Positions 412 through 30,147 of a stretch of 32,000 nt of DNA are shown here, piece by piece. The notes under the pieces were generated by a model. That model searched no databases. It was not told the origin of the DNA and worked only from the letters and a program-made list of their open reading frames with translations. Source of the stretch: Chlamydiales bacterium. Lineage in GTDB: Bacteria > Chlamydiota > Chlamydiia > Chlamydiales > SM23-39. The number at the start of each line of letters is the position of its first letter. The first letter of the stretch is position 1. The stretch lies in NCBI GenBank assembly GCA_965261025.1, contig OZ253438.1:1170001-1202000 (forward strand), written 5' to 3'. The position numbers and the translations under genes were made by a program.

Positions 412-1674
412 GTGGATTATAAACCAAAAAAGTGGAACGAATCTGTGCTAAAAACAGCAAAAAAGAAGATAGAAAAAGCTCCTTTGATTGAGAAGAAGCC
501 CTGTTGTAGCGTTTGCTTGGATTCAGGTTTCTTACAAGAGCTTCTTGTTTTTCCGGAGCTTCCCTTTACAGGGATTTATGTTCCTTTAGAAGAAAGGGAG
601 GAGTCTTGTTTCTCTCAAGGGTTGGATCAGGGATTTTCTTTTTGTCCTCGTTGTTGTCATGGACAGCTGACTAATGTGGTAGATCCTTTTGTAGTTTATA
701 ATCAGTCCTATACTCATAGGGGCTCTAAAAGTGTTATTGCAACAGGAGGAAACCAGTTTTTTGCCCAATTTATAGAAAAAGTTTTTCCTCGCAGAACCTT
801 TCGGGGAGTTGTAGATATTGGCTGTAATGATGGTTTTTTGTTAAGACAGCTTGAAGAAAAGGCGGAACATCTTTTAGGGATTGATCCTATCTGGGGAAAT
901 AGAGAAGTAAAATTAACAGAAAAAATTCGTCTTTTGGGAGGGTTTGTACAAGAGGTAGATATTGTAAAATCACTGGGGAAACCTCTTGATTTAGTTATAT
1001 CTGCGCACACTTTTGAGCATGTAGAGAATCCAAAACAAGTTTTAGAGTCTATTGCAAAAAAGGTGGAAGTGGGTACGGTTTTAGTCATAGAAGTTCCCAG
1101 TTTGGATACACTTTTGAGAAACCATCGTTTTGATCAGATATTTCACCAACACATACAATATTTTTCTTGCAGATCGATCTCTACTTTGATGCAAAGTATA
1201 GGTTTTTCCTATGTTGCCCACGAATTTAATTATTCCATGTGGGGGGGGACTATGCTTTTTGCTTTTGTAAGAAAAGAGCAAAGAGAAGAAAAGCTCCCTG
1301 ATTTTCCAAAATATAGTTTAGAAGAAATCTTTTCTTCTTATGCTACCTTCCAAGATTCCTTAGAGAGGCTTTCAAAAAAGATCGCTTCTTTGGAAAAAGG
1401 AGAGATTTGCGCTTTTGGAGCGGCGCAAATGTTACCAGTTTTAGCGTATCATACTCCTTGCCATTTAGCTGGAATTTCTTCTGTCTACGATGATAATACA
1501 CAAAGGCATTTTCTACGCTATCCGGGATTTTCTTTTACTATACAAAACCCAGGAGGAGTCTCTTTTAGGGATAAGACAGTAGTAATTACTGCTTTAGATA
1601 GCGCTCGTCCTCTTATTGGTAGGTTAAATTCTTTGGGGGCTAAAAGTATACTACTACCACTACAGAACCTATAA
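412..1674 (+). CDS. Zn-ribbon C-methyltransferase of the NDP-sugar C-methyltransferase type (TylCIII-like; Methyltransf_13/14 architecture)
   Basis: N-terminal CxxC..CxxC pair (CSVC ... CPRC). SAM motif I is VVDIGCNDGFLL. The C-terminal domain contains FHQHIQYF and is paralogous to ORF 14981-16180. The start is uncertain: GTG 412, GTG 445 and TTG 484 are all in frame and none has a strong SD. The stop overlaps the next start (TAATG at 1672-1676). Confidence 0.75.
   Translation: MDYKPKKWNESVLKTAKKKIEKAPLIEKKPCCSVCLDSGFLQELLVFPELPFTGIYVPLEEREESCFSQGLDQGFSFCPRCCHGQLTNVVDPFVVYNQSYTHRGSKSVIATGGNQFFAQFIEKVFPRRTFRGVVDIGCNDGFLLRQLEEKAEHLLGIDPIWGNREVKLTEKIRLLGGFVQEVDIVKSLGKPLDLVISAHTFEHVENPKQVLESIAKKVEVGTVLVIEVPSLDTLLRNHRFDQIFHQHIQYFSCRSISTLMQSIGFSYVAHEFNYSMWGGTMLFAFVRKEQREEKLPDFPKYSLEEIFSSYATFQDSLERLSKKIASLEKGEICAFGAAQMLPVLAYHTPCHLAGISSVYDDNTQRHFLRYPGFSFTIQNPGGVSFRDKTVVITALDSARPLIGRLNSLGAKSILLPLQNL
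1241..1248 (+). repeat. Homopolymeric G8 tract inside the C-methyltransferase coding sequence (codons TGG GGG GGG = W-G-G)
   Basis: Read directly: ...ccatgt gggggggg actatg... This is the longest G/C run I found in the window; all other G/C runs are 6 nt or shorter. Confidence 0.95.
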
Positions 1675-2561
1675 TGAAAAAATTAAAAATTGCCATACTA
1701 GGAACGGGGAAGTTAGCTACAGATCTACTGGTAAAAGTGCTTCGCTCTTCCAAGCTTGAATGTGTCATCTTTGTAGGAAGAAACCGAGAGTCTCATGGAA
1801 TCTGTATTGCTAAAGATTTGCAGGTGCCAACCTCTTTTGAAGGAGTAGATTTTTTATTGAAACAGCCCCACTTATATGAACTGGTTTTCGATGTAACCAC
1901 AGCGCAGTCTCATCTTATTCACAACCAGCTTTTGCAGCCTCTTGGAAAACCTATTATAGATCTTACTCCTTGCCGTATTGGGAGTCTCCTTGTTCCCTCT
2001 ATTAATCTATCTTTAGTACATAAGACAAAGAATGTAAATTTAGTAAGTTGTGGTGGACAAACAGCTATCCCTATAATTCACGAGATTGTTTCCAAGGCAG
2101 ATTTGGTAGAATCAATCGAAATTGTTTCCACTATTGCTGCAAAAAGTGCGGGTAGAGGAACTCGTATAAATATTGATGAATATATTACCAAAACCGAAAC
2201 GGCCATTTCCTATTTTTCGGGATGTAAGAAGGTAAAAGCGATACTTATTTTAAATCCCGCCGTTCCCGAAGTGAATATGAAGACTACTCTTTATATGAAG
2301 GGCAAGCATACTGATCTTGATTCGATTCATAAAGCTATTTTATTAGCTGTTGAAAATATGCAGAAATATGTTCCAGGATATCGTTTGAAAGTACCCCCTG
2401 TGATTGACGAAGATGTTTTGACTGTAACTATAGAAGTCGTCGGTAGAGGAGACTACCTCCCTTTTTATGCGGGAAACTTAGATATTATAAATTGTGCAGC
2501 GATTCAGATTGCTGAGGAGTATGCAAATCATGTAACGGGATCGATGGCATGTCATGTATAG
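1674..2561 (+). CDS. Acetaldehyde dehydrogenase (acetylating), DmpF/MhpF family
   Basis: N-terminal Rossmann motif KIAILGTGKLATDLLVK. Catalytic-Cys signature NLVSCGGQTAIPIIHEI. Length of 295 aa is typical of the family. It overlaps the downstream aldolase gene by 13 nt, as DmpF/DmpG pairs do. Confidence 0.85.
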   Translation: MKKLKIAILGTGKLATDLLVKVLRSSKLECVIFVGRNRESHGICIAKDLQVPTSFEGVDFLLKQPHLYELVFDVTTAQSHLIHNQLLQPLGKPIIDLTPCRIGSLLVPSINLSLVHKTKNVNLVSCGGQTAIPIIHEIVSKADLVESIEIVSTIAAKSAGRGTRINIDEYITKTETAISYFSGCKKVKAILILNPAVPEVNMKTTLYMKGKHTDLDSIHKAILLAVENMQKYVPGYRLKVPPVIDEDVLTVTIEVVGRGDYLPFYAGNLDIINCAAIQIAEEYANHVTGSMACHV

Positions 2562-3568
2562 AGATTAGCGATGCTTCTTTAAGAGATGGAAATCATGCTA
2601 TATCCCATCAGCTTCACTTGGAGCATATAGCCCTTTATGCTCTAAAAGCAGATGAGTCTGGTATGTCCTACATTGAGGTAGGACATGGTAATGGTTTAGG
2701 AGCTAGTTCTTTTCAGATTGGGCATGCGCTCCACAGTGATGCAGAAGTTTTACATGCGGCTAGAAAAGCAGTGCAAAGGGGAAAGTTAAGTGTTCATGCA
2801 ATTCCTGGATTTGCCACAATTGATAAAGATATTTTACCTGCTATAGAAAAGGGAGTAGATACTTTTAGAATAGCCTCTCATTGCACGGAAGCGGATACGA
2901 CAGAGACCCAAATATCTTATTTGAAAAAGAGGGATAAGGAGGTTTTTGGAGTGCTCATGATGTCTCATAGGGCTTGTAAAAAGCAATTATTAGAGTCCGC
3001 AAGGTACATGCAAAGCTATGGAGCTTCTGGTGTGATTCTTATGGATTCAGCAGGAGCTTATATTCCGAGTGAGGTAAAAGAGAAGATTTCTTTTTTGGTA
3101 GATCATCTACAGGTTAAGGTGGGATTTCATGCGCATAATAACCTTGGTCTTGCTGTATCTAATTCTATTCTCGCTGTAGAATGTGGAGCCACTATTTTAG
3201 ACGCTACAGCAAGGGGTTTTGGAGCAGGTGCAGGAAATTGTCAGATAGAAATCCTGGTACCTCTTTTAAGCAGGCTAGGATATAGGACAAATATCGATCC
3301 CCATAAAGTTTTAGATCTGGCTGATTTTGCCGAAAAAACTTTTATACCAAGCATTCCTTCTCCTAGAACGCTTAGTATAGCAACCGGTTTGGCAGGCCTA
3401 TTTTCTGGCTTTGCTAAGCCTATAGAGAAGATGTGTGAAAAATATGAAGTAGATCCCAAGAAGGTAATTGAGACGCTAGGTTCTATGAAAGTAGTGGCAG
3501 GGCAGGAAGATGCTATTTTGCAGGCCATAAAAATGGTGATGAGTCATGATACAAGAAAATCTTCTTAA
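2549..3568 (+). CDS. 4-hydroxy-2-oxovalerate aldolase-like (DmpG/MhpE family, HMGL-like TIM barrel)
   Basis: ISDASLRDGNHAISHQ (substrate/metal Asp region) and VGFHAHNNLGLAVSNS (His-x-His metal ligands). 339 aa. Directly paired with the DmpF-like gene. Confidence 0.85.
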   Translation: MSCIEISDASLRDGNHAISHQLHLEHIALYALKADESGMSYIEVGHGNGLGASSFQIGHALHSDAEVLHAARKAVQRGKLSVHAIPGFATIDKDILPAIEKGVDTFRIASHCTEADTTETQISYLKKRDKEVFGVLMMSHRACKKQLLESARYMQSYGASGVILMDSAGAYIPSEVKEKISFLVDHLQVKVGFHAHNNLGLAVSNSILAVECGATILDATARGFGAGAGNCQIEILVPLLSRLGYRTNIDPHKVLDLADFAEKTFIPSIPSPRTLSIATGLAGLFSGFAKPIEKMCEKYEVDPKKVIETLGSMKVVAGQEDAILQAIKMVMSHDTRKSS

Positions 3569-4334
3569 GAAAGCCCTTACTTCAAATCGAGTTGTTTTTG
3601 GGACTTGGTCTGTCTTACACTCTGTTTCTTCTATAGAGGCCTTGGGGGCAACTCCTTTAGATTTTATCCTTTTTGATAGGGAACATGATTCTATTTCTTA
3701 CGAGAAAATTGCTCAGTATACAAGTTTTTGTTTTGCTAGCAGACTTACTCCACTGGTTAGAATTCCTGAAATTTCTCTTAGTGAGGTACAACGCGCGCTT
3801 GATTCGGGAGCGCAAGGGTTGCATGTTCCAAATATTTCAAGGCCTGAGCAAATAGAGAAGCTCTTGGAACTAGCGTTATTTCCTCCTTTGGGTAAAAGAG
3901 GGTTTGCTCCTTTTACTAAGGCTTGTGGGTATCAAAAAGAAAAGGTGTCTTATGTTTTACAAAACACCAATAACCAGCTTTTGCTAGCGGTTCATATAGA
4001 AAACAAAGAAGGAATAGAAAATCTTTCCAAGCTTCTTTCTTATGAATTTATTGATATATTTTTTGTGGGGCTTTTTGATTTAGCAAACTCTTTGGGTCTT
4101 CAGGGGGATATTAGGCATCCGCATTGGGAAGAAATCTTGAAGTCCCTTATAAAACAGATTCAGTCGAAAAATAAAATAGCAGGAACCATTGCTATGAATT
4201 TAGAGCAGGCGGAGTATTTGCTGGGATTGGGATTTCAGTATTTAACGATCTCTTCTGACTGTGATATGCTCTTTAGTTCTTATACAAACTTTTTACAAAA
4301 TGTGGGAAGGGTTTCTTATGGAGTTAAATCTTAA
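3546..4334 (+). CDS. HpcH/HpaI-family (class II, pyruvate-dependent) aldolase
   Basis: VVFGTWSVLHS..IEALGATPLDFILFDREHD and ..VRIP......RALDSGAQGLHVP resemble the HpcH/HpaI aldolase / citrate-lyase beta fold. The ATG at 3546 overlaps the upstream gene by 23 nt. Confidence 0.75.
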   Translation: MIQENLLKKALTSNRVVFGTWSVLHSVSSIEALGATPLDFILFDREHDSISYEKIAQYTSFCFASRLTPLVRIPEISLSEVQRALDSGAQGLHVPNISRPEQIEKLLELALFPPLGKRGFAPFTKACGYQKEKVSYVLQNTNNQLLLAVHIENKEGIENLSKLLSYEFIDIFFVGLFDLANSLGLQGDIRHPHWEEILKSLIKQIQSKNKIAGTIAMNLEQAEYLLGLGFQYLTISSDCDMLFSSYTNFLQNVGRVSYGVKS

Positions 4335-5109
4335 GGGAAAAAAAGCATTGGTTACAGGGGGCTCTAACGGAATTGGCAAGGCCATTGTCAAGGCTTTGGC
4401 TTCGGAAGGGGTCACGGTAGCTTTTACTTCTAGAAAGCAGTACCGAATTGATTCACTTTTATCAGAGATGGAGGAAGAGGGACTTTCTCATTTAGGGGTA
4501 CAGGTGGATATCTCAGAAGAAGCAGGTCCTAGTAGAGTAAAGGCTGTTTTAGAAGAAAAGTTTGGAGAAGTGGACATTCTCGTAAATAATGTAGGAGATA
4601 CTTTATCAATAGTGGATCCTTACTGTTCCTTATCTGATTGGAAAAGGATATACCGGCTAAATCTCGAAGTGCACGTAGAGTTAGTTAATTTATTTCTTCC
4701 TCATATGCTCAAGCAAAGGTGGGGTCGAATTGTAAATATCACGGCAGGCGCTGCTTTAGAAAACAGTGGTCCCGTTCCTTATTGTTCTATGAAGGCGGCG
4801 TATACGGCTTATACAAGATCTATGGCGCGAGTTTTGGCACCAGAAAATGTCGTTATGACAGCGGTGCTTCCTGGTGTTGTGCTTACAGAAGAAGGGCATT
4901 GGCAAAAAGTATTGGAAGACAGACCGAATCATGCAAAAAAGTATTTATCGGAGAGGACTTCTTTGAAAAGATTTGGGCTTCCTGAAGAGATTAGTCCCAT
5001 GGTGGTTTTTCTTTGTTCTGATGCGGCTTCCTTTTGTCAAGGGTCTATTGTTCCTGTAGAAGGAGGACAGGCCCGTCATTATTTTCATGTGCATGGAATA
5101 GGAAATTAA
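4318..5109 (+). CDS. Short-chain dehydrogenase/reductase (classical SDR)
   Basis: The protein starts MELNLKGKKALVTGGSNGIGKAI (TGxxxGIG). It carries NNVG and the YxxxK catalytic motif (YCSMKAAY). I prefer ATG 4318, preceded by GGGAAGGG, over the track's upstream alternative start at 4261. The TAA stop is immediately followed by the next ATG (5107-5112). Confidence 0.85.
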   Translation: MELNLKGKKALVTGGSNGIGKAIVKALASEGVTVAFTSRKQYRIDSLLSEMEEEGLSHLGVQVDISEEAGPSRVKAVLEEKFGEVDILVNNVGDTLSIVDPYCSLSDWKRIYRLNLEVHVELVNLFLPHMLKQRWGRIVNITAGAALENSGPVPYCSMKAAYTAYTRSMARVLAPENVVMTAVLPGVVLTEEGHWQKVLEDRPNHAKKYLSERTSLKRFGLPEEISPMVVFLCSDAASFCQGSIVPVEGGQARHYFHVHGIGN

Positions 5110-6870
5110 ATGAAGGCAACAGACTATATTGCCTCTGTTTTACGAAAAAAGGGTATTTCAGCAGTTTTTGGAGTAACTGGGGGTGCAGTCGTACATCTTT
5201 TTGATTCTGCAAAGAAGGAGGGATTAGAATGCGTGTTTACCCATCACGAACAGTCGGGAGCTTTTGCAGCAGGGGCTTTTGCTAGGCTCCAGGGATTAGG
5301 AGCTTTATTTTGTACTACAGGACCTGGAGGGACAAACGCTCTTACAGGGATAGCGGCGGCTTGGCTTGACTCCGTTCCCTTAATCTGCTTAGGGGGACAG
5401 GTAAGATTGTCTCACATGAAACCAAAAAATATTCGGCAGCAAGGAGCACAAGAGCTGGATATAGTCTCTTTGATGAAGCCCATTACAAAATCAGCACAAA
5501 CGGTAAAGAGTTTAGCTCTTTTACCTAAGATGTTAGAAGAGTCTATTGAAATAGCTACCTCAAAAAGACCGGGACCCGTTTATCTAGAAATACCCCTGGA
5601 TTTACAGTGGCAATCCATTACTTTACCAGAGGCTTCTTTACAGAAAGACTTTCCGGAAGTAGCTTTAGAAGAAGAAAAAATGAAGCAAATTTTTCAGCGG
5701 TTTAACCAGGCTAAAAAACCTCTTGTTTTGATAGGGCATGGTGTAAGACTAGCTAAGGCTAAATATCTTATAAGAGCTTTTTTGGATAAGAGCGAAGTTC
5801 CTCATATCACTACGTGGAATGCGGTAGATCTGGTAGAGGGAACGTCCCCTTTGTATCTGGGTTGTCCTGGGATGTTTGGCACTAGAGAAGCCAATTTAGC
5901 GGTACAGACTTGCGACTTTCTTCTTTGTATAGGGACGCATTTACCTATTCCTATTACAACAGGTTTATTTCATAAGTTTGCTACTTCTGCTGAGATTGCT
6001 ATGATCAATATTGATGACAAGGAGCTTTCCTCGCAAAGGGTAGAGATAAAGCATAAACTACTCATGGATGCTAGGGTTTTTTTAGAAAAGGCTCTTCCTG
6101 TTATTCAGCCTGTAAAAAATTGGTCTTGGAAAAGCTCCTGCTGTAGGATTCGGCAGCTTTTTTCTTCGAGCTTTTTACCGAAAAAGGAAAAAGGTTTTAT
6201 GGATGCTTATCAAGCGGTAAGAATCATCAACAGCTTTTTGGATAAAGATACTATTGTGGTTATAGATGGGGGAGGCACTATTGTACAGATTGGAATGCAA
6301 ACGCTTATTGCTAAAGAGAATCAACGAATTATAATTGATGCGGGACTTTGTTCTATGGGATCAGGGCTTCCTCATGTTATTGGCTCTTGTAAAGCAAGGC
6401 CTGATGCAAAGGTATTTTGTCTTGTGGGAGAAGGCAGTCTTATGTTTAATTTACAAGAACTTCAGACTCTCTCTGATCACAAGATGAATGTAGTAGTGTT
6501 CGTTTTCAATAATGAAGGATATCTTTCTATAAAACATACCCAGGAGAGTTTTTTAAAAGGAGTTTACTTAGGCTCTAGCAAAGAGGGAGGGATTTCTACG
6601 CCAGATCTCAAAAAGTTGGCTTCTTCTTTTTGCATTCGATATTCGCTGGCTGCGGAGGAAGAGACGTTTTCTGAGCAGCTCTCCATTATAAAAAAAGAAA
6701 AAGGCCCTCACTTATGTGAAGTTCGAATTTCTAAAGAGCAGTCTATTTCTCCAAAAATCGGATTTTCAAAAAATCAAGACGGGACAGCCTCTCAAAATCC
6801 CATAGATAAGATGGAGCCCTTCATCTTTGAAAAAGAAACAAGAGAATTCTTAGTAAATATAAAGACCTGA
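5110..6870 (+). CDS. Thiamine-diphosphate-dependent enzyme, acetolactate-synthase large-subunit / YerE-like carboligase
   Basis: HHEQSGAFAAGAFARL carries the catalytic Glu. TTGPGGTNALTGIAAAWLDSVPLICLGGQ is also present. The ThDP motif reads GEGSLMFN..(24 aa)..NNEGY, i.e. GEG instead of the canonical GDG. 586 aa. Confidence 0.85.
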   Translation: MKATDYIASVLRKKGISAVFGVTGGAVVHLFDSAKKEGLECVFTHHEQSGAFAAGAFARLQGLGALFCTTGPGGTNALTGIAAAWLDSVPLICLGGQVRLSHMKPKNIRQQGAQELDIVSLMKPITKSAQTVKSLALLPKMLEESIEIATSKRPGPVYLEIPLDLQWQSITLPEASLQKDFPEVALEEEKMKQIFQRFNQAKKPLVLIGHGVRLAKAKYLIRAFLDKSEVPHITTWNAVDLVEGTSPLYLGCPGMFGTREANLAVQTCDFLLCIGTHLPIPITTGLFHKFATSAEIAMINIDDKELSSQRVEIKHKLLMDARVFLEKALPVIQPVKNWSWKSSCCRIRQLFSSSFLPKKEKGFMDAYQAVRIINSFLDKDTIVVIDGGGTIVQIGMQTLIAKENQRIIIDAGLCSMGSGLPHVIGSCKARPDAKVFCLVGEGSLMFNLQELQTLSDHKMNVVVFVFNNEGYLSIKHTQESFLKGVYLGSSKEGGISTPDLKKLASSFCIRYSLAAEEETFSEQLSIIKKEKGPHLCEVRISKEQSISPKIGFSKNQDGTASQNPIDKMEPFIFEKETREFLVNIKT

Positions 6871-7729
6871 AGAATCTCCTTCCCCGGGAGATTATTCCTC
6901 CTAGAATGAGGAAGATAAGGGTTTTGGGGGATTTTTTTTGCCAAAATAGGGTATAAATAAATTCTTTTCTCAGCTCTTTCAAAATAGAGTAAGAGAGCAT
7001 CTTTTTTCTCACGTCAAGATAAGCGGGAGTTTGTAGGGATTCTAATATATAAAGACAGGGTTTTTTTCGGTCATTTTTAGGATGAGAAAGATTTTCATCG
7101 TGCAAACGCTTATGAGCCAACACCGCTTTTATAAAAACAAAACCATGTCTCAAGGCAATCACATGGGAAAAAAACCAATCGCAAAGAGGTCCTGTATTTT
7201 TTTGAACTCCTCCTGCTTGGAGAACATAACTTCTTTTGTAGATGCTAGTATGTCCTAAAAATGTGTGATTTTCTTGCTTAAATTTTGCCACTTCCTCTCT
7301 AGGGTAGAATTGGGAGGGGAAAGACGTTTGTTCATTGCATTTTTCTCCTTCTTTTTTTTTGTGAAAATAAAAAGGTTCAGAACAAGCAAACCCCGCTTCG
7401 GGGTGTGCTTTTAAAGAGGAGAGAGTAATTTCAATAAAATTTGGTAAAATGAAGTCATCGGAACAGGCAAAATAAATGTATTCTCCTTTTGCCCTATGTA
7501 GCCCCCTATTAGCGCTTTCATAAGCTCCTCGTCTCTTCTCGTTTTTGATAAAAATAATCTGAGGAAAGTTTCTTACGTAACTTTCTATAATATCGCGGCT
7601 ATTATCCGTAGAGGCATCATCGATAAGGATAAGTTCGTCAGGAAATTTTGTTTGTTGAGCAAATCCTTCCAAAGCAGATTCAATATAACGTCCAAAATTG
7701 TAATTGCACATAACTACAGAAAGACGCAT
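6821..7729 (-). CDS. Family 2 glycosyltransferase (GT-A fold)
   Basis: MRLSVVMCNYNFGRYIESAL..LILIDDASTDNS.. and a DxD-like CSDDF motif. ATG 7729 is preferred over the track's 7777 because GT2 proteins normally begin right at the 'SV(V/I)..YN' strand. The 3' end overlaps the convergent ThDP gene by 50 nt. Confidence 0.8.
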   Translation of the reverse strand: MRLSVVMCNYNFGRYIESALEGFAQQTKFPDELILIDDASTDNSRDIIESYVRNFPQIIFIKNEKRRGAYESANRGLHRAKGEYIYFACSDDFILPNFIEITLSSLKAHPEAGFACSEPFYFHKKKEGEKCNEQTSFPSQFYPREEVAKFKQENHTFLGHTSIYKRSYVLQAGGVQKNTGPLCDWFFSHVIALRHGFVFIKAVLAHKRLHDENLSHPKNDRKKPCLYILESLQTPAYLDVRKKMLSYSILKELRKEFIYTLFWQKKSPKTLIFLILGGIISRGRRFFRSLYLLRILLFLFQR

Positions 7730-7921
7730 TGAGGTTCCAAAAGGTTTTTTTGTATACAAGATACCTTGCGTAGGCATTTTTAAAAAATAAGAACAAAAAG
7801 AAAGTCTTCTAACTTTAGTTGTACAGAAAAGAAGATCTTCGTGTTAGACTCCGAGGTAGTTTTTACATACAAGTTAAGCTGCAGCTAAATATAGCCCAGA
7901 GGATAGTTTAGGTATTTTGAT
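7730..7921. promoter_or_regulatory. Divergent intergenic region that must hold promoters for the GT2 (minus) and Zn-ADH (plus) genes
   Basis: Back-to-back start codons. The only candidate element I see is a weak TTTACA (7862-7867) - N18 - TAAATA (7886-7891). I could make no confident -35/-10 assignment by eye. Confidence 0.3.
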
Positions 7922-8986
7922 ATGAAAGAGGGTAAAACATTCGCAGCTATCTTGGAAAAGCAAAAGTCTCCCCTTCTTTTAAAAGAGCTTAAACTTCCCG
8001 AATTAAAACCAGGCCAGGTTTTAGTCAAGATGCACTATAGCGGTCTTTGTAGAACCCAGATAAATGAGATTATAGGATTAAAGGGAGAGGATCATTACCT
8101 ACCGCACACTTTAGGTCATGAAGGGTCTGGGGTTGTAGTTAGTATAGGAGAGGAAGTTACTAAGGTACTCCCTGGAGATCACGTAGTGATTTCCTGGATA
8201 AAAAGTAAAGGTAGAGAAGCTTCTTCTACGCAGTATGAAGGAGAGGGGCAAAAAGTGAACTCAGGAGCAGTGAGTACCTTTTTAACCTATGCGGTTATTG
8301 CAGAAAATCGGTTGGTTTCTATCCCTAAAGATATTTGTCTAAAAGAAGCCGCTCTTTTAGGTTGCGCTTTTTGTACAGGAGCAGGTGTGATCTTAAACCA
8401 AATGAAGCTAAAAAAGGGAGAATCTTTGGCGATATGTGGATTAGGAGGTATTGGCATGAGCGCGCTTATAGCAGCTTCTATGCAGAAGGCTTTTCCTATT
8501 GTTGCAGTAGATATTTCCCGAGAAAAACTGCACAAGGCAAAAGAGCTTGGAGCTACTCATACCATCGATGCTAAAGAAGAAGGAGTTCTGGATAAAATTC
8601 GACAGATTACAGAAAAAAAGGGAGTAAATTTTTCTTTAGAATCAGCAGGTAGCTTATCTGCTATGGAACTCTCTTTTGCTTGCTTGTCTCCTGATAGGGA
8701 AGATTTTAGAAAAGGTGCTTGCTACATTGTAGGGAATGTAAAAAAACAAAGCACCATTCGGATAGATCCCTTTGATTTAATTTTGGGAAAAAAAATTTAT
8801 GGCTCCTGGGGTGGAGAAACTAACTTAGATGAAGATATTCCTAGATATTGTAAGCTCATTCAAGAAGGAAAACTTTCTTTAAAATCGCTCATCTCACACG
8901 AAGTTTCTTTAAAAAATATCAATTCTCTCATAGATCTTGCAAAGAAAAATGAGCTTCAAAGAGGTCTTGTGACTTTTTTGCAATAG
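7922..8986 (+). CDS. Zinc-dependent medium-chain alcohol dehydrogenase (MDR family)
   Basis: Catalytic Zn ligand contexts are GLCRTQ, GHEGSGVV and LLGCAFCTGAG. The NAD motif is GLGGIGMSA. The four-Cys structural-zinc loop that normally follows GDxV is absent (ISWIKSKGREASSTQYEG has no Cys). Confidence 0.8.
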   Translation: MKEGKTFAAILEKQKSPLLLKELKLPELKPGQVLVKMHYSGLCRTQINEIIGLKGEDHYLPHTLGHEGSGVVVSIGEEVTKVLPGDHVVISWIKSKGREASSTQYEGEGQKVNSGAVSTFLTYAVIAENRLVSIPKDICLKEAALLGCAFCTGAGVILNQMKLKKGESLAICGLGGIGMSALIAASMQKAFPIVAVDISREKLHKAKELGATHTIDAKEEGVLDKIRQITEKKGVNFSLESAGSLSAMELSFACLSPDREDFRKGACYIVGNVKKQSTIRIDPFDLILGKKIYGSWGGETNLDEDIPRYCKLIQEGKLSLKSLISHEVSLKNINSLIDLAKKNELQRGLVTFLQ

Positions 8987-11541: not shown

Positions 11542-12231
11542 CTAGCTTGAAAGAGCCCAACGGATTGGTTTAATTCCTTTTTTTTCCAGATAACAATTTG
11601 TTTTTGAAAAAGGTTTAGAGCCAAAAAAGCCAAAAGAAGCAGAATAAGGAGAAGGGTGGGCCGAGGAAAGAACGAGGTGATCTTTAGGAATTTTTGCTAA
11701 GATCCTTTCGCACTTTTCTTGAGCTGATTTTCCCCAAAGGAGGAAAACCAAAGAATCTTTCTTTTCTGCTAAAAGCTGAATGACTCGATCAGTAAAAATT
11801 TCCCATCCTTTTCCATAGTGAGATCTAGGTTCTTTTTCTCTCACCGTTAAAGTAGCGTTGAGAAGAAGCACTCCTTCTTTGGCCCAACCCAGTAAAGAGC
11901 CTTGCTTTGGAGGAGGAATGTGTAGATCCTCTTCTAATTCTTTGAAAATGTTTTTTAAAGAAGGGGGAAAAGGAGTGCCTTCTTGTACGCTAAAAGAAAG
12001 GCCGTGAGCTTGGTCTTTTCCATGGTAAGGATCTTGTCCTAAAAGAACCACTTTTACCGCATCAAAAGGGGTTTGACAAAAGGCGTTAAAAAGGAGAGAA
12101 GAAGGGGGATAAAGGAGTTTTCCTTCTTTTATTTCTTTTCGCAAGAAATCTTGAAGATCTTTCATGTAAGGCATTTTCCACTCTTTCTCCAAAAGGTGGG
12201 CCCATTTTTGTTCCATATAAAAAGGAGTCAT
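11542..12231 (-). CDS. ung: Uracil-DNA glycosylase, family 1
   Basis: VVLLGQDPYHGKDQAHGLSFSV (water-activating Asp loop), GVLLLNATLTV and the C-terminal HPSPYSA His motif. Its ATG overlaps the TGA of the upstream epimerase gene (ATGA at 12228-12231). Confidence 0.92.
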   Translation of the reverse strand: MTPFYMEQKWAHLLEKEWKMPYMKDLQDFLRKEIKEGKLLYPPSSLLFNAFCQTPFDAVKVVLLGQDPYHGKDQAHGLSFSVQEGTPFPPSLKNIFKELEEDLHIPPPKQGSLLGWAKEGVLLLNATLTVREKEPRSHYGKGWEIFTDRVIQLLAEKKDSLVFLLWGKSAQEKCERILAKIPKDHLVLSSAHPSPYSASFGFFGSKPFSKTNCYLEKKGIKPIRWALSS

Positions 12232-13163
12232 ATATTTTTAAATTCACTTCTTTTCAAAAGAGGATAAGCAAATACCATCTCTTGAATTCCCTCTTCTAAA
12301 GTTTTTGTAGGAGCCCAACCGAGAGATTCTAGCTTTTCATTGCTTACGATATAGTTTCTTTGATCTGGATCTTTCCCTATAGGAGCAGAGTGAATATATA
12401 GGTCAGGAACATATCTTTGTATCGTTTCTGCTAGTTCTTTTTTACTGAGATTTGCAGAACTTAACCCTACATTAAAAGCCTCAGCTCTCATTCTATCAAA
12501 GTTTTGTATAGCAAATAGAAAAGCTCTAGCTACGTCTTTTACGTGGATGTAGTTTCTTTTGAAATGCTCTTCGAAAAGAACTAGAACCTTGTCATGACAG
12601 GCGCGAAAAGTAAAGTCATTGACCAAAAGATCGAGACGCATTCTGGGAGATATCCCAAACACAGTAGCGAGTCTTAAAGAAACGGCTTGCTTTGTTTGTA
12701 GTAACTTTTTTTCTATATCTACTTTGAGTTTTCCATATAAAGAAACGGGGTTTAACGGAGTTTTTTCGGTGCAGAAAAGATTGTTTTGCCCTAGCCCATA
12801 CCCGCTATTGCTATTTGGAAACACTATTTTTTTCTCTTTTGTCATATAGCGCAAAATCAGCTCAATAGCGTCGTAATTTACAAGCTTTGCCAAAGAAGGA
12901 GAGGCTTGGCAAATAGGGGCTCCTACTAAAGCCGCTAGAGGAAGAATGATATCTGCTTCTTCAACTAGATGAGCAAGAAGAGGTTCATTTTGTACTTCCC
13001 CTTTTATAAAACGAAAATGAGGACTGGCAAAGCAACAAAGAAGGGAGGTGGGTGTATACAAAAGAGAATCCAAAACAGTAACGAAAAACCCTTCTTCTAA
13101 AAGAAGAGGAACCATTACGGAGCCTATGTATCCTGCTCCCCCTGTTACTAAGATATGTTGCAT
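12228..13163 (-). CDS. NAD-dependent nucleotide-sugar epimerase/dehydratase/reductase (extended SDR)
   Basis: ILVTGGAGYIGS Rossmann motif and YGKLK (YxxxK). 311 aa. It overlaps the upstream nucleotidyltransferase gene by 16 nt. Confidence 0.85.
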   Translation of the reverse strand: MQHILVTGGAGYIGSVMVPLLLEEGFFVTVLDSLLYTPTSLLCCFASPHFRFIKGEVQNEPLLAHLVEEADIILPLAALVGAPICQASPSLAKLVNYDAIELILRYMTKEKKIVFPNSNSGYGLGQNNLFCTEKTPLNPVSLYGKLKVDIEKKLLQTKQAVSLRLATVFGISPRMRLDLLVNDFTFRACHDKVLVLFEEHFKRNYIHVKDVARAFLFAIQNFDRMRAEAFNVGLSSANLSKKELAETIQRYVPDLYIHSAPIGKDPDQRNYIVSNEKLESLGWAPTKTLEEGIQEMVFAYPLLKRSEFKNI

Positions 13164-13867
13164 AAGTTAGAAAGTGCGGTTTGTGCTTGTTGAAAGGATT
13201 TTTCTGTTCCTATATCGACAAAAGTCTTATCGCAAGGATACATAAAGAAACGCTTTTGTAAACAAAGGGGAAATACCTCTTTTTCCAAAGAAAAAGAAGG
13301 AGATTCAAAAGGCAAATCGGAAAAAAGGCTCTTTCGAAAAAGATAGGTACCACAGCTAATCCATCCTTTTTCTGAAAAAGGGATCTTCTCTTCAAAAGAA
13401 AGAATTTGGGAAGTAGTAGGATCTATGCTTACAGTTCCATATCTACTAGTGTCTTCCATTTGTTTTCCTAAAAGGGAAATGTCTGCTTTTTTTTCTAAAA
13501 AGCTTTGGTAGAATCCCTTTAGAGAATAGTCTGTAAAACAGTCCCCATTAGTAGCAAGTACATGAGGGGTTTTTACTAAATTCAAAGCTCTTTTTAAAGC
13601 ACCGCCCGTTCCCAAAGGGGTCTCTTCTATAGAAAAATAGAGGGGAAATGAGGTTTCTTTAAAGTGTTCCAAGATTTTCCCTGCTTTATATCCCACAGCC
13701 AGGATAATCCTACCTACCGAAGAAAAGGAGGCGAGCTGGTTTATCAAAAGATCCAAAAAAGGAATTCCTCGAATGGGAGCAAGGGGTTTAGGGACGGAAG
13801 AAACAACTTTTTGCAGACGAGTTCCGAATCCCCCTGCCAAAATAATAGCGTCTGTTTTATTTGTCAT
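13148..13867 (-). CDS. Sugar-1-phosphate nucleotidyltransferase (HddC / mannose-1-P guanylyltransferase-like)
   Basis: AIILAGGFGTRLQ..PKPLAPI signature (GxGTRL). 239 aa. ATGA overlap with the kinase gene at 13864-13867. Confidence 0.85.
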   Translation of the reverse strand: MTNKTDAIILAGGFGTRLQKVVSSVPKPLAPIRGIPFLDLLINQLASFSSVGRIILAVGYKAGKILEHFKETSFPLYFSIEETPLGTGGALKRALNLVKTPHVLATNGDCFTDYSLKGFYQSFLEKKADISLLGKQMEDTSRYGTVSIDPTTSQILSFEEKIPFSEKGWISCGTYLFRKSLFSDLPFESPSFSLEKEVFPLCLQKRFFMYPCDKTFVDIGTEKSFQQAQTALSNLCNIS

Positions 13868-14868
13868 AAGTCCTTCCTATAAATCAGAGAGCTTCCCTCT
13901 TTTTCTAAGGAAAAGGGAACCGCAAAAAGAGGACGAAGTGCTTCTTTTACCTCCATCTTCTTGGAAGGGGGAACCATTAGTAACAAGAAACCGCTCTGCC
14001 CTGCTCCACAAAGCTTCCCTCCTAAAGCTCCTGCTTTCCTTGCTTTTTCGTAATACAGATTAATCGTTTCGTTAGAAATTTGAGAAGAAAGTTTTTGTTT
14101 TAACTGCCAGCTATAGTCTAAAAGTTCGGCAAGTTTCTCCGGGAAAAAGAGCTCCTTTTGTTCTAGGAAAATTTTTTTTGCTTCGTATACCAAGGAAACC
14201 ATCGTTTCTAAAAAGGAATCATTTTTATTTTCTTTTGTATTTTGAATTTGCTCTTGGATTACTTTTTCTGCAAATCGTGTGGTTCCTGTATAAAAAAGCA
14301 TCAGATGTTCCATAAAGCAAAGGCGTTTTTCCTCAGGGATAGGTAGGGGAAAAACCTCTATTCCCTTAGGGGAAAATTCCATTAGGTTGCATCCTCCAAA
14401 AGAGGCATGGTATTGATCTTGGGATCCCACTTTTTCTCGAATCATCTGTTGTTCTACAAAGCAAGCCTCTTTAGCTAAAAGATTTTTAGAAATGTTTCTT
14501 CCTTGTAGAGCTGCTAAAGCGTGTAGAAATCCAACCGTAAAAGAAGAAGAGGAGCCAAGACCTGTTCTGGCGGGAAGATCCGAGCAAATATGAACATCTA
14601 AAGGCTCTTCTAACTTATAAAAACGGAGGCATTCTCGAATACTGGGATGCTCAATCTCTTCCAGGGAATTTACGGCCTCTACTTTGGAGTAAGATAGGCG
14701 CATCTTGTGCGGAAAAAAAGGGCTTGTTTTTTTCACGGTAACGTAGGTGTATTGATCTATAGTAGTTCCTAAGATAGCTCCTTTTTTTCTTAAGTAGTAT
14801 TCTGTATAGTCAGAACCTCCTCCGAAAAAACTAATCCTTACAGGAGTTTTAGAAATCACCAAAACCAT
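13864..14868 (-). CDS. GHMP-family sugar kinase (HddA / heptose-7-phosphate-kinase-like)
   Basis: N-terminus is KTPVRISFFGGGSDY. GHMP ATP motif is LPARTGLGSSSSFTVGF. 334 aa. It is the first gene of the minus-strand operon. Confidence 0.85.
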   Translation of the reverse strand: MVLVISKTPVRISFFGGGSDYTEYYLRKKGAILGTTIDQYTYVTVKKTSPFFPHKMRLSYSKVEAVNSLEEIEHPSIRECLRFYKLEEPLDVHICSDLPARTGLGSSSSFTVGFLHALAALQGRNISKNLLAKEACFVEQQMIREKVGSQDQYHASFGGCNLMEFSPKGIEVFPLPIPEEKRLCFMEHLMLFYTGTTRFAEKVIQEQIQNTKENKNDSFLETMVSLVYEAKKIFLEQKELFFPEKLAELLDYSWQLKQKLSSQISNETINLYYEKARKAGALGGKLCGAGQSGFLLLMVPPSKKMEVKEALRPLFAVPFSLEKEGSSLIYRKDL

Positions 14869-14980
14869 AGCAAAAAGCAGTTGGGTAAAGAGCCATGGTA
14901 GCTTTCACGATTTTTTTATCCAAATCTTATTTATTTTTTGCTAATGTCTCTCTTTAGTTAGGAGGAGAGGGCTGGTTTTT
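14869..14980. promoter_or_regulatory. Divergent intergenic region (kinase operon on minus, C-methyltransferase/fcl-like/gmd operon on plus), including a strong SD for the plus-strand gene
   Basis: Back-to-back starts. GGAGGAGAGG at 14961-14970 lies 10 nt before GTG 14981. I found no confident -35/-10 elements by eye. Confidence 0.35.
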
Positions 14981-16180
14981 GTGTTTTGTAGAGTCTGTGA
15001 TAAAAGAGATTTTCGTTTAGTAGTAGATCTGAAAGAGCAACCTTGGGGGAATCATTTTTTGCAAAAAGAAGAGTTGGGAAAAGAACAAAAATATCCTCTT
15101 CGTCTTGTTTATTGCGAAAGTTGTTCTACTGTGCAACTAGACCATACGGTAAAAAAGGAAATCCTGTTTTTAGACCACACGTATCTTTCTGGTATGACTC
15201 AGACCTTAAAAAGACATTTTTCTAAGGAGGCTCAAAGAGTAGATAATCGATTTTTCTCTAAAAAAAAGAAAAAGAGAGTTCTCGATATAGGTTCCAATGA
15301 TGGTACGCAGTTACGCTTTTATAAGGAGATGGGATATGAAGTAGTGGGAGTGGAGTCTTCTAAAAAAGCGGCAGAGATTGCTTCAAAAGAGGGAATCTAC
15401 ACTATTTGTGATTTCTTTAACTTTGACCTTGCCAGGAAAATAGGAGGTTTTTTTGACGTAATCAATGCAGCAGGAGTTTTTTTTCACCTAGAAGAACTTC
15501 ATTCAGTTTGTGAGGGTATTCGTTATCTTTTGGAGGAAAAAGGGGTTTTTATCATTCAATGCATGTATATGAAAAACATCGTAGAAAAGGGGGCTTTTGA
15601 TCAGATTTATCATGAGCATCTTCTTTATTATACGGTTCGCTCTTTAACTACCCTTTTAAAAAGGCATGGATTGGAGCTTTTTGAGGTGGAAGTAAATCCT
15701 ATTCATGGAGGGTCTTTGATAGCCTATGCTTCGCATAAAGGAAGCTTTCCTATTCTTTCTTCTTTGCTGGCTTTAGAAAAAGAGGAAGAGCAACAGGGGT
15801 GTAACACCTATGAATACTACCAAAGATTTGCTGAGAAAATACAGGTCCTCAAAGAGGAAAATCTTCGATTTTTTTCTGAGGCAAAAAAAGAGGGAAAAAC
15901 GATTTATGGTATGGGAGCTCCTGTAAAAGGCAATACCCTTTTAAACTACTTTGGGATAGGAACAGAATATATTTCCTATTTGGTAGAAAAAAATCCTTTA
16001 AGGAAGGGATTGTATAGTCCTGGTATGCATATTCCCATAATTTTGGAGGAGGATCTGACTACAGTTCCAGATATCTACTACGTGTTGGCATGGAATTTTA
16101 AGCAGGAAATTTTGCAAAGGCACCTCGATCTTGTAAAAAGAGGAATTCAATTTCATTTTCCTATAGGTGGAAGCACATGA
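14981..16180 (+). CDS. Zn-ribbon C-methyltransferase (NDP/GDP-sugar C-methyltransferase type), paralogue of 412-1674
   Basis: GTG start with a strong SD. CRVC ... CESC zinc-ribbon pair. SAM motif I is VLDIGSNDGTQL. YHEHLLYY and the C-terminal Methyltransf_14-like domain are present. 4-nt overlap with the next gene. Confidence 0.8.
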   Translation: MFCRVCDKRDFRLVVDLKEQPWGNHFLQKEELGKEQKYPLRLVYCESCSTVQLDHTVKKEILFLDHTYLSGMTQTLKRHFSKEAQRVDNRFFSKKKKKRVLDIGSNDGTQLRFYKEMGYEVVGVESSKKAAEIASKEGIYTICDFFNFDLARKIGGFFDVINAAGVFFHLEELHSVCEGIRYLLEEKGVFIIQCMYMKNIVEKGAFDQIYHEHLLYYTVRSLTTLLKRHGLELFEVEVNPIHGGSLIAYASHKGSFPILSSLLALEKEEEQQGCNTYEYYQRFAEKIQVLKEENLRFFSEAKKEGKTIYGMGAPVKGNTLLNYFGIGTEYISYLVEKNPLRKGLYSPGMHIPIILEEDLTTVPDIYYVLAWNFKQEILQRHLDLVKRGIQFHFPIGGST

Positions 16181-17124
16181 GTATTTTGGTAACAGGGGCT
16201 TCCGGATTTTTAGGGAAGTTTTTAGTAGAGACTCTCTTAAAACGAGGGAAAAAAGTAATTGCTTTGGATAGCAAGAAAGCAGATCTTACCGAAAAAGGCT
16301 CTTTAAGGGATTTTGATTCTTATAATATTTCTACGATTTACCACTTAGCCGCTTGGACACAAGCAGGAGATTTTTGCCTTTATCATTCAGCACAGCAGTG
16401 GTTTATTAATCAAAAGATCAACTTGCACGTCTTAGATTGGTGGGTAAAAAAACAGCCTCAAGCCAAAATGGTAAGTATAGGAACTAGCTGTTCTTATGAT
16501 CCAGAACACCCTTTGAAAGAGGAATTTTACCTTCAAGGAAAACCAATAGATAGTCTGTTTACCTATGCTATGACAAAAAGAATGCTTCTTACGGGTTTAC
16601 AAGCTGTGAACAGGCAATATGGACTGAAGTATTTATATGTGATCCCCTCTACCCTTTATGGTCCCAGCTATCATGAGGATGGAAGGCAAATGCATTTTAT
16701 CTTTGACTTGGTTCGTAAAATTTTAGAGGGAAAGTTTTGCGGAAAACCTGTTATCTTATGGGGGGATGGGAAGCAAGAAAGAGAAATAATTCATGTGTTT
16801 GACTTTATAAGAACGCTTTTAGAATTGGAAGAAACTACATCAGATACATGGATTAACATAGGGGCCGGGAAAGGTTACTCTATTAGGGATTTTGCCCAAA
16901 AAATTTGCAAGCTGGTTGGCTTTCCCTGGGAAAAAGTTCAGTTTGATAGTTCTCGTTATGTAGGAGCAAGATCAAAGATTTTAGATATAGAAAAACTGCG
17001 AAAGCTTAGACCCAATCTTTCTTTTCTTCCATTGGAGGAAGGATTAAAAGACTTAATTGAATGGTTTTGTATTAAGAAGAATTATTCAGTATTTAAGGCT
17101 GACGTAGAAAGAAATGCAAAATAG
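16177..17124 (+). CDS. GDP-4-keto-6-deoxyhexose epimerase/reductase (GDP-L-fucose synthase / Fcl-like extended SDR)
   Basis: ILVTGASGFLGK, a YAMTK catalytic motif, and PSTLYGP..H plus VQFDSSRYVGARSKILDIEKL, which parallels the E. coli Fcl C-terminus (FDASKPDGTPRKLLDVTRL, recalled from memory). It sits immediately upstream of gmd. Confidence 0.8.
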   Translation: MSILVTGASGFLGKFLVETLLKRGKKVIALDSKKADLTEKGSLRDFDSYNISTIYHLAAWTQAGDFCLYHSAQQWFINQKINLHVLDWWVKKQPQAKMVSIGTSCSYDPEHPLKEEFYLQGKPIDSLFTYAMTKRMLLTGLQAVNRQYGLKYLYVIPSTLYGPSYHEDGRQMHFIFDLVRKILEGKFCGKPVILWGDGKQEREIIHVFDFIRTLLELEETTSDTWINIGAGKGYSIRDFAQKICKLVGFPWEKVQFDSSRYVGARSKILDIEKLRKLRPNLSFLPLEEGLKDLIEWFCIKKNYSVFKADVERNAK

Positions 17125-17148
17125 TAAGGTTTTATTTTAGGTTTATCT

Positions 17149-18189
17149 ATGGCAAAAAAAGCCCTGATTACAGGGATTACAGGGCAAGATGGTTCTTATT
17201 TAGCAGAGCTACTTTTAGAAAAAGGCTACCTAGTACATGGACTAGCCAGAAGAACTTCTTCTTCCTCTTTTACTAGAATTCTTTCGCTCCAAAATCACCC
17301 TAATTTTTTCCTTCATGAAGGAGACCTTACTGACTTTTCTAGCTTAAAAAGACTTTTGGAAGAAATCTCTTTTGAAGAAATCTATAATTTAGCTGCTATG
17401 AGTCATGTCCAAAGCTCTTTTTCCGTTCCCTTAAGCACAGCGGATATAAATGGGTTGGGGGTTTTGCGTTTTCTGGAGCTTTTGAGGAATAGCTCTGCGA
17501 ACACCAAATTTTATCAAGCTTCTACTTCAGAACTTTTTGGTAAAGTAAAACAAGTTCCCCAAAATGAAAATACGGCTTTTCATCCAAGATCTCCTTATGC
17601 TACTTCCAAGCTTTTTGCTTATTGGTCTGTAGTAAACTACCGAGAAGCGTACCATCTTTTTGCCTGTAACGGCATTTTATTTAACCACGAAAGTCCAAGA
17701 AGAGGAGAAAATTTTGTTACCCGAAAAATTACTTTGGCTGCGGCTAGAATAGAACGAGGACTACAAACAGAGCTGGTTTTAGGAAATCTTGAAGCGAAAA
17801 GAGATTGGGGCTATGCCAAAGATTTTGTAGAAGGTATGTGGAGAATCCTTCAGCAAAAAATGCCGGAGGATTTTGTTCTTTCTACAGGGAAGACTCACAG
17901 TGTAAGAGAATTTGTAGAACTTGTCTTTGAGAAAATAGGAAGAAATCTTGTTTGGGAAGGAAAAGGTTTACAAGAGGTGGGAAGAGATCGGAACACGCAA
18001 AAAATTCTTGTGAGAGTCTCTCCCGAATATTTCAGGCCTACCGAAGTAGACTTGCTCCTAGGAGATCCTTCTAAGGCAAAAAAAAAGCTAGGATGGGAGG
18101 CTTCTACTGATCTAAAAAATCTGGCTTCTTTGATGGTAGAAGAAGACAGAAAAACCGTAGAAAGGATCTGTCAGGAAAGCTCCTGTTAG
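17149..18189 (+). CDS. gmd: GDP-mannose 4,6-dehydratase
   Basis: KKALITGITGQDGSYLAELLLEKGYLVHGLARRTSS is almost identical in pattern to canonical Gmd N-termini. Also present: STSELFG, YATSKLFAYW, NHESPRRGENFVTRKIT and RDWGYAKDFVEGMW. Confidence 0.93.
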   Translation: MAKKALITGITGQDGSYLAELLLEKGYLVHGLARRTSSSSFTRILSLQNHPNFFLHEGDLTDFSSLKRLLEEISFEEIYNLAAMSHVQSSFSVPLSTADINGLGVLRFLELLRNSSANTKFYQASTSELFGKVKQVPQNENTAFHPRSPYATSKLFAYWSVVNYREAYHLFACNGILFNHESPRRGENFVTRKITLAAARIERGLQTELVLGNLEAKRDWGYAKDFVEGMWRILQQKMPEDFVLSTGKTHSVREFVELVFEKIGRNLVWEGKGLQEVGRDRNTQKILVRVSPEYFRPTEVDLLLGDPSKAKKKLGWEASTDLKNLASLMVEEDRKTVERICQESSC

Positions 18190-30011: not shown

Positions 30012-30147
30012 ACTCTTTTCGAAATCAAACAAGAGGTTATTTTTAAGTGTTGTAGGACCTTTTGGCAAGAACTCTTTGTGATTTTTATGCTAATTTTTTT
30101 TTATCCTGCAAGAAAAAAGAGGCAATTTTTAAAAAAAGGTTTTTCCT
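30012..30147. promoter_or_regulatory. Divergent intergenic region between topA (minus) and the HExxH membrane-protein gene (plus)
   Basis: Back-to-back starts in very AT-rich sequence with a T9 run at 30094-30102. Promoters are inferred from gene arrangement only. Confidence 0.3.

Follow-up and report, generated by a model that had tools for sequence, protein, structure and literature searches.

What does a Chlamydia-like bacterium build with a short-chain dehydrogenase/reductase (SDR) and an acetolactate-synthase-like thiamine diphosphate (ThDP) enzyme that are encoded back to back? The question arises from a 32,000-nucleotide stretch of a Chlamydiales bacterium genome (contig OZ253438.1 of assembly GCA_965261025.1, positions 1,170,001 to 1,202,000), hereafter the window, in which the two genes occupy positions 4318 to 6870. 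An initial annotation likened the pair to the YerF/YerE module, in which a two-carbon unit from pyruvate is transferred to a 4-keto nucleotide sugar and the product is then reduced, and pointed out that the Mg-ThDP motif of the enzyme reads GEG instead of GDG. The comparison was right in kind, and its scale has to be enlarged from two genes to a coupled operon of six that also encodes DmpF-like, DmpG-like, HpcH/HpaI and C-methyltransferase proteins. We think that the pair probably forms the downstream end of an erwiniose-type, ErwJ/ErwI/ErwF/ErwE-like cassette for an acyl-branched sugar, located in an envelope-glycan island, and hold this reading with moderate confidence. The kind of cassette is already known (YerE/ErwE-type acyl-branched sugars), its host is unusual, and its acceptor sugar is probably different.

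The open reading frames are as first described, and the stop codon of the SDR gene directly abuts the start codon of the ThDP gene, which constitutes translational coupling:

ATG 4318 to TAA 5107-5109, plus strand: classical SDR ketoreductase of the NADPH type, 263 aa, a putative YerF/ErwF-like reductase of the branch carbonyl
ATG 5110 to TGA 6868-6870, plus strand: predicted YerE/ErwE-like ThDP carboligase, probably also binding flavin adenine dinucleotide (FAD), 586 aa with three TPP_enzyme domains
6430-6432, plus strand: GAA codon for E441, a Glu in place of the Mg-binding Asp of GDG

The SDR matches Pfam adh_short with 144.6 bits, and its translation shows TGGSNGIG, NNVG, YxxxK and, after beta2, SRK. 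Each gene is preceded by a Shine-Dalgarno-like sequence, GGGAAGGG for the SDR (start 4318) and AGGAAA for the ThDP enzyme (start 5110), and the first 17 nt of the SDR gene lie within the end of the HpcH/HpaI aldolase gene. Promoter and terminator scans showed no meaningful difference from shuffles.

To which family does the ThDP enzyme belong? Its three Pfam domains all score above the gathering threshold (TPP_enzyme_N at residues 1-120, TPP_enzyme_M at 192-327 and TPP_enzyme_C at 393-538). Among solved structures, the best sequence match is JanthE (8RPH; 340 bits, E 1.7e-100, 31-32% identity), followed by PpYerE (5AHK, 253 bits) and then by Escherichia coli acetohydroxyacid synthase (AHAS) I (237 bits); JanthE outscores AHAS by a wide margin, PpYerE by a narrow one. 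Both JanthE and PpYerE are ‘YerE-like’ carboligases that accept ketones (PMC12188165, PMC12247030). An AlphaFold model of the enzyme (pLDDT 84, pTM 0.87), compared by Foldseek, superimposes on JanthE with template modelling (TM) scores of 0.90-0.91 (E 4e-55), versus 0.82-0.85 (E ~1e-46) for AHAS. NCBIfam labels the enzyme ‘acetolactate synthase’, yet its scores of 200-338 bits fall far short of the curated cut-offs (509-1084); the best AHAS models are NF006524 (337.6 bits, cut-off 738) and TIGR00118 (324.1 bits, cut-off 538). The genome, a single contig of 1,422,118 bp that is 93% complete, yielded no match to ilvN, ilvC or ilvD, and the same searches found matches in 13-14 of the 14 control genomes. 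Judged by its sequence, the protein is a YerE-like carboligase in a surface-glycan locus and not an anabolic acetolactate synthase, which bears out the initial annotation on this point.

The pair closes a block of six overlapping or abutting genes, which begins with a C-methyltransferase and continues with an acetaldehyde dehydrogenase, two aldolases of different families, the SDR and the ThDP enzyme. The other members of the block and two genes that follow it are:

412-1674, plus strand: S-adenosylmethionine (SAM)-dependent sugar C-methyltransferase, TylC3-like, first gene of the block (Pfam Methyltransf_23)
1674-2561, plus strand: acylating acetaldehyde dehydrogenase, DmpF/BphJ/ErwJ-like, presumably supplying acetaldehyde from acetyl-CoA (TIGR03215, 341.9 bits, cut-off 282)
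2549-3568, plus strand: 4-hydroxy-2-oxovalerate aldolase, DmpG/BphI/ErwI-like, the presumed maker of the donor keto acid (TIGR03217, 323.8 bits, cut-off 286)
3546-4334, plus strand: class II HpcH/HpaI pyruvate aldolase (Pfam HpcH_HpaI; superfamily of MMAR_2331), possibly making a second donor keto acid
6821-7777, minus strand: convergent GT2 glycosyltransferase (Glycos_transf_2, 97.6 bits), candidate transferase for the product
7922-8986, plus strand: Zn-dependent medium-chain alcohol dehydrogenase (ADH_N, ADH_zinc_N), a conserved cassette member

The DmpG-like aldolase is single copy in the genome, and no FAA_hydrolase-family hydratase occurs in the 1,422,118 bp; the DmpFG-like pair is therefore not part of a meta-cleavage pathway. 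The closest Protein Data Bank (PDB) matches of the second aldolase are YfaU and HpaI (E ~1e-26). The GT2 gene overlaps the 3' end of the ThDP gene by 50 nt (window 6821-6870), and the corresponding overlap in a congeneric genome is 68 nt (L092 13838-13905). The first C-methyltransferase is related to the Methyltransf_13/14 C-methyltransferase at 14981-16180 (24% identity, E 5e-20), including the N-terminal Cys-rich region. It contains a G8 homopolymer (window 1241-1248) that encodes W-G-G. Runs of G7 are not over-represented (2 seen versus 2.9 expected from shuffles), so phase variation here is no more than possible.

These neighbours match a characterised module. The erwiniose cluster of Pectobacterium atrosepticum comprises the ThDP enzyme ErwE, the reductase ErwF, the BphI-like aldolase ErwI and the BphJ-like acetaldehyde dehydrogenase ErwJ (Steitz et al. 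2022, PMC9306805). The substrate of ErwE is 4-hydroxy-2-oxopentanoate, and pyruvate is not accepted (PMC9306805). The caryophyllose cluster contains MMAR_2331, a protein of the aldolase/citrate-lyase family, and a Rhodopseudomonas palustris cluster adds a SAM methyltransferase (PMC9306805). All of these elements are present in the window, and an extended scheme, with an aldolase that makes a gamma-hydroxy-2-oxo acid donor, therefore describes it better than the two-gene YerE/YerF model does.

How widely is this arrangement conserved? A scan of one genome per species gave 80 loci of the ThDP family, with which the window proteins were compared by tblastn. The best-contextualised relatives are in Omnitrophota (L004), an Opitutia metagenome-assembled genome (L005), Verrucomicrobia (L006), Neomarinimicrobiota (L007) and L018. 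Jointly, these five loci carry the Zn-dependent alcohol dehydrogenase, DmpF, DmpG, the C-methyltransferase, the SDR (53-65% identity) and the ThDP enzyme (38-42%); the alcohol dehydrogenase is missing from L005, DmpF from L007, and the methyltransferase and SDR from L018. In L004-L007 the SDR gene is the immediate upstream neighbour of the ThDP gene, and the same four loci have C-methyltransferase orthologues within the cassette. DmpF is conserved beside the ThDP gene in L004, L005, L006 and L018 (46-50% identity), the alcohol dehydrogenase occurs at 45-54% identity in L001, L004, L006, L007 and L018, and a GT2 homologue follows the ThDP gene in L001, L005, L007 and L018. The HpcH aldolase is found among related cassettes in L004 and in the congeneric genome only.

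A FastTree phylogeny of 175 rows, rooted on E. coli IlvB, IlvI, Gcl and PoxB (its sole named references), places the window enzyme and all loci with DmpFG context in one 45-row clade with Shimodaira-Hasegawa (SH)-like support of 100. DmpF/DmpG accompany the ThDP gene in five of the eight loci of this clade and did not turn up at any of the 72 remaining loci scanned. No SDR-ThDP fusion occurs among the long homologues, whose extra domains are methyltransferase, HAD, radical SAM or unassigned. Within the 45-row clade, P0122 (856 aa) is a ThDP carboligase fused to a C-terminal SAM methyltransferase (Methyltransf_11/25/31), and other family members are fused to HAD, to radical-SAM/SPASM or to an unassigned N-terminal region of ~250 aa.

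Closer to home, the congeneric genome (G001) is syntenic throughout, and searches of other genomes of the organism's family returned distant paralogues only, or none. Identity between the congeners is highest in the operon for the SDR (84%), followed by the subunits of an upstream E1 pair (77-78%), the alcohol dehydrogenase (77%), DmpG (75%) and DmpF (71%), and is lower for the first C-methyltransferase (62%), the ThDP enzyme (61%) and the GT2 glycosyltransferase (58%). The faster divergence of these last three genes fits diversification of the glycan; relaxed constraint is also compatible with it.

What, then, might be made? The acylating dehydrogenase would convert acetyl-CoA to acetaldehyde, which the DmpG-like aldolase would join to pyruvate to give 4-hydroxy-2-oxopentanoate. 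The ThDP enzyme would decarboxylate this acid to a ThDP-bound 3-hydroxybutanal (“activated aldehyde”) carbanion and add it to the C4 carbonyl of a nucleotide-4-keto-6-deoxy sugar, generating a tertiary alcohol. The NADPH-dependent SDR would then reduce the branch carbonyl, and the GT2 enzyme would move the branched sugar onto the glycan. The initial annotation had pyruvate as the donor of a two-carbon unit. Its scheme of ThDP transfer followed by reduction is retained here, and its donor is not: given the match to the ErwE/F/I/J module, the donor is, by analogy, likely to be the gamma-hydroxy-2-oxo acid 4-hydroxy-2-oxopentanoate.

The acceptor is probably a hexose or heptose derivative linked to guanosine diphosphate (GDP) or another nucleoside diphosphate (NDP), and not the cytidine diphosphate (CDP)-3,6-dideoxyhexose used by YerE and ErwE. 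Neither a CDP-glucose pathway nor a pyridoxamine-phosphate-dependent 3-dehydrase was found in the Pfam/NCBIfam scans, which covered the window open reading frames examined and seven of the eight operon genes directly upstream, the rest of the genome not having been searched for ddh genes. GDP- and heptose-type sugar genes occupy the locus in place of those for CDP-3,6-dideoxy-4-keto-glucose:

12228-18189, no strand assigned: sugar-nucleotide genes for an epimerase, an HddC-like guanylyltransferase, an HddA-like kinase, a C-methyltransferase, an Fcl-like reductase and Gmd

Five of these six (all but Gmd) have homologues after the ThDP gene in L005, namely the epimerase, the nucleotidyltransferase, the GHMP kinase, the second C-methyltransferase and the Fcl-like gene, and GT2 is present there as well. 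Upstream of the window, on the same strand, lie genes for two epimerase/dehydratase-family proteins, a GmhA-like isomerase, an HldE-like kinase/nucleotidyltransferase, an E1 alpha/beta pair, an RmlB-like 4,6-dehydratase and a further methyltransferase. Of these nearby upstream enzymes, the RmlB-like dehydratase could supply the 4-keto acceptor, as could Gmd on the downstream side. The E1 alpha/beta pair is an E2-less ThDP system (E1_dh; Transket_pyr + Transketolase_C) at G000:C1:1166624-1168639 (L091:14624-16639), ~1.4 kb upstream of the window. Going by domain content, the locus encodes two different ThDP systems, both of kinds proposed for sugar C-branching. Downstream are further glycosyltransferases and a protein of the O-antigen-ligase family. 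The reductase partner that was initially envisaged is present, in a surface-glycan setting: the SDR adjoins the ThDP gene, and glycosyltransferases, Gmd, O-antigen ligase and heptose genes surround them.

The second question concerns the GEG motif. As first reported, the sequence runs CLVGEGSLMFN...FVFNNEGY (G440-E441-G442, 24 residues, N467-N468), seen both in the translation and in the codon GAA. In HMMER alignments E441 stands opposite the Mg-binding Asp of JanthE (CDG) and PpYerE (GDG), and N468 and G470, the remaining metal ligands, are kept, as is E47, the catalytic Glu. Sequencing error had been raised as a possible explanation. Such an error, or one of assembly, is unlikely because contigs from two runs, each belonging to a different study, agree on GAA. 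One Logan contig (depth 22, probably from the source sample) spans the whole ThDP gene with zero differences, and a 151-nt Logan contig from a second study is identical over 6416-6566.

The motif is not conserved in orthologues, a check that the initial annotation had proposed. The congeneric orthologue (about 61-62% identity) has GDG, and the E441 position is Asp in 119 of the 120 nearest homologues, with Glu in the window enzyme only. The Asp is also less invariant than that annotation supposed. At this motif position, Vogel et al. (PMC3534367) found 91% Asp and 7% Glu among ~3000 sequences of the decarboxylase superfamily, and GEG occurs in 12 others of 150 diverse family representatives (50% clusters, 307-819 bits; ~8%). 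The 14 GEG rows on the tree, one of which is a cultured Paenibacillus (L011), require 13 changes, i.e., ~13 independent origins, and E47 and N468 are kept in all of them. Representatives with the JanthE-type CDG motif fall outside the 45-row clade. The branches leading to the window enzyme and to its GDG sister are equally long (0.39 each), and there is therefore no sign of lineage-specific decay. GEG is a genuine, lineage-specific, conservative replacement of Asp that recurs in nature, and E441 is most likely a tolerated variant compatible with the predicted activity. For the D440E mutant of Zymomonas pyruvate decarboxylase, which reportedly retains part of its activity and binds cofactor less tightly, a literature search yielded nothing, and the present reading does not rely on it. 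A second change at a near-invariant position, R475K, is unique to the window genome; JanthE likewise has Lys there. The window enzyme and its congeneric orthologue share departures from otherwise near-invariant family residues near the ThDP site, namely Q445M, L459M, K462V/S and Y507F.

Several points count against an erwiniose-type cassette and have to be set beside the evidence for it. The window enzyme is likened to ErwE by gene neighbours and description, not by ErwE sequence, and the SDR is equated with YerF/ErwF by position only, the window reductase being a classical SDR. The locus lacks the pathway to CDP-3,6-dideoxy-4-keto-glucose that the characterised systems have. Sequence does not reveal which donor is preferred, and JanthE, the closest solved relative, takes pyruvate (PMC12188165) as well as longer donors. 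The HpcH aldolase and the upstream E1 alpha/beta system make the assignment of donor to enzyme ambiguous, and the ThDP gene is among the fastest-evolving of the operon, at 61% identity between congeners versus 71-84% for its metabolic neighbours. If pyruvate were the donor, as in YerE itself, the enzyme would add a two-carbon acetyl branch, the SDR would reduce it to a yersiniose-like 1-hydroxyethyl group, and the aldolases and acetaldehyde dehydrogenase would serve another step. Sequence and fold place the enzyme among YerE-like proteins, JanthE does accept pyruvate (PMC12188165), and no two genes are coupled more tightly than those for the SDR and the ThDP enzyme, where ATG comes straight after TAA. 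We nevertheless consider a pyruvate donor unlikely: it leaves the link of DmpF/DmpG to this clade of ThDP enzymes unexplained, the operon already encodes, further upstream, an E1 alpha/beta pair of a type for which a part in two-carbon sugar branching has been proposed, and ErwE, with the same gene neighbours, rejects pyruvate. Another alternative gives the HpcH/HpaI aldolase the central role. Alone or after DmpFG, it would make a polyhydroxylated C6-C7 2-oxo acid, which the ThDP enzyme would transfer to yield a long branch, as in caryophyllose or the R. palustris sugar. The direct coupling of this aldolase upstream of the SDR, its kinship with MMAR_2331 of the aldolase/citrate-lyase family, the SAM methyltransferase present in both the R. 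palustris cluster and the window operon, and an alcohol dehydrogenase in the cassette that could provide the aldehyde all speak for such a route. Among related cassettes, however, the common partner is DmpFG, with HpcH restricted to L004 and the congener, and no source of a C3/C4 hydroxyaldehyde was identified; we regard the route as rather improbable.

Two further readings concern the ThDP enzyme itself. The change D441E might weaken Mg-ThDP binding and leave an inactive or decaying enzyme, such that this species has lost the ability to form the branch. The Glu is unique to the window genome among the 120 nearest homologues and in the 45-row clade, the congeneric orthologue retains Asp, R475K is an additional change at a near-invariant position, and few genes of the operon are less conserved than the ThDP gene. 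However, the frame is intact and the 586 aa align end to end with E47, N468 and G470 kept, the branch is no longer than that of the GDG sister, Glu occurs in ~8% of family representatives and 7% of the superfamily, JanthE shares the Lys at the R475 position, and all operon partners are intact. Impairment thus seems very unlikely to us. An anabolic or catabolic acetolactate synthase has a negligible chance of being the right description: the best NCBIfam names are AHAS large subunits (E 1e-100) and JGI labels several homologues ‘acetolactate synthase’, but this candidate fails because the scores lie below the curated AHAS cut-offs and the genome lacks ilvN, ilvC and ilvD, with positive controls. 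YerE-like structures also outrank AHAS, and the gene context is a glycan operon. The erwiniose-type cassette therefore remains the reading that we prefer.

The remainder of the window contains other genes that bear on the cell envelope. Amid sugar genes and a methyltransferase, an L-2-hydroxyglutarate oxidase equivalog is encoded on the minus strand (window 18186-19397; 467 bits versus a cut-off of 299). A 711-aa fusion protein (window 23983-26118, minus strand) combines an oxidoreductase with Pyr_redox_2 and dimerisation domains and a C-terminal VTT/DedA membrane domain. An O-antigen-ligase-family (Wzy_C) protein lies at window 26178-27524 on the minus strand and a hydroxylase of 3-deoxy-D-manno-octulosonic acid (Kdo; PF11004, 281 bits) at 31005-31961 on the plus strand; together, these two predicted proteins suggest elaborated lipopolysaccharide (LPS) in this Chlamydia-like organism. 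Chlamydiota are classically regarded as producing only truncated LPS without O-antigen. Between the ligase-family and hydroxylase genes, topoisomerase I (TopA) is encoded with a C-terminal SWIB/MDM2 domain (window 27525-30068, minus strand), a fusion typical of Chlamydiae that places the genome in this group.

If the erwiniose-type reading is correct, the scheme established for the long acyl branches of erwiniose and caryophyllose extends to Chlamydia-like bacteria and their relatives in the Planctomycetes-Verrucomicrobia-Chlamydiae (PVC) group, and a non-CDP acceptor, GDP- or heptose-based, is suggested for the YerE/ErwE class of enzymes. The natural GEG enzyme and its same-genus GDG orthologue, about 61-62% identical, provide a clean test pair for Glu at the Mg-binding position; the Asp-to-Glu change could conceivably adapt the strength of metal or cofactor binding to intracellular life. 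The findings also correct the widespread ‘acetolactate synthase’ label of this family, in a genome without the valine pathway. More speculatively, the ~17-kb operon, with two ThDP sugar-branching systems, two or three C-methyltransferases and a heptose-nucleotide pathway, may build an undescribed, multiply C-branched higher sugar on LPS, an idea that we put forward as doubtful though worth stating.

So, how does the locus compare with the systems that are known? The AHAS large subunits (IlvB/IlvI/IlvG) share with the window enzyme the three-domain fold, an FAD-binding middle domain and the GDG-x24-27-NN region, whereas the window enzyme scores below the equivalog cut-offs and is without a regulatory subunit, ilvC or ilvD. 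In the YerE/YerF system of Yersinia pseudotuberculosis, which makes yersiniose A (PpYerE, 5AHK), a ThDP/FAD enzyme transfers an acyl group to a 4-keto nucleotide sugar and ketoreduction follows, in an O-antigen context; the same chemistry is predicted for the window. YerE differs in its pyruvate donor, C2 branch and CDP-linked 3,6-dideoxy acceptor and in needing no aldolase, and at 253 bits PpYerE barely exceeds E. coli AHAS I (237 bits) as a match to the window enzyme. The clusters with MMAR_2331/MMAR_2332 in Mycobacterium marinum and in R. palustris CGA009, compared by description, have in common with the window an aldolase of the HpcH/citrate-lyase family, a ThDP carboligase, a reductase and, in R. 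palustris, a SAM methyltransferase, but have no DmpFG pair and use C7 polyhydroxy keto acid donors.

JanthE of Janthinobacterium sp. HH01 (8RPH/8RPI/8RPJ), the closest solved structure, is a YerE-like, FAD-containing carboligase that accepts ketones and, as donor, 4-hydroxy-2-oxovalerate. It too has a non-canonical ThDP motif, in which the first Gly is altered (CDG) and the Asp retained, in contrast to the Asp-to-Glu change of the window enzyme. The equivalents of JanthE P293 and K567 are kept in the window enzyme, that of Y268 is Phe, and a C-terminal extension is common to both and not shared by AHAS. The erwiniose module differs from the window operon, which is without CDP-3,6-dideoxy-4-keto-glucose genes and has heptose/GDP-type genes and an RmlB-like dehydratase instead, adds an HpcH aldolase, a Zn-dependent alcohol dehydrogenase and C-methyltransferases, and combines a GEG motif with a Chlamydia-like host. 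The parallels are nonetheless extensive: a ThDP carboligase, an NAD(P)H reductase, a BphI-like aldolase, a BphJ-like dehydrogenase and a glycosyltransferase occur together in an LPS locus in both cases, and the donor predicted for the window, 4-hydroxy-2-oxopentanoate, is common to both.

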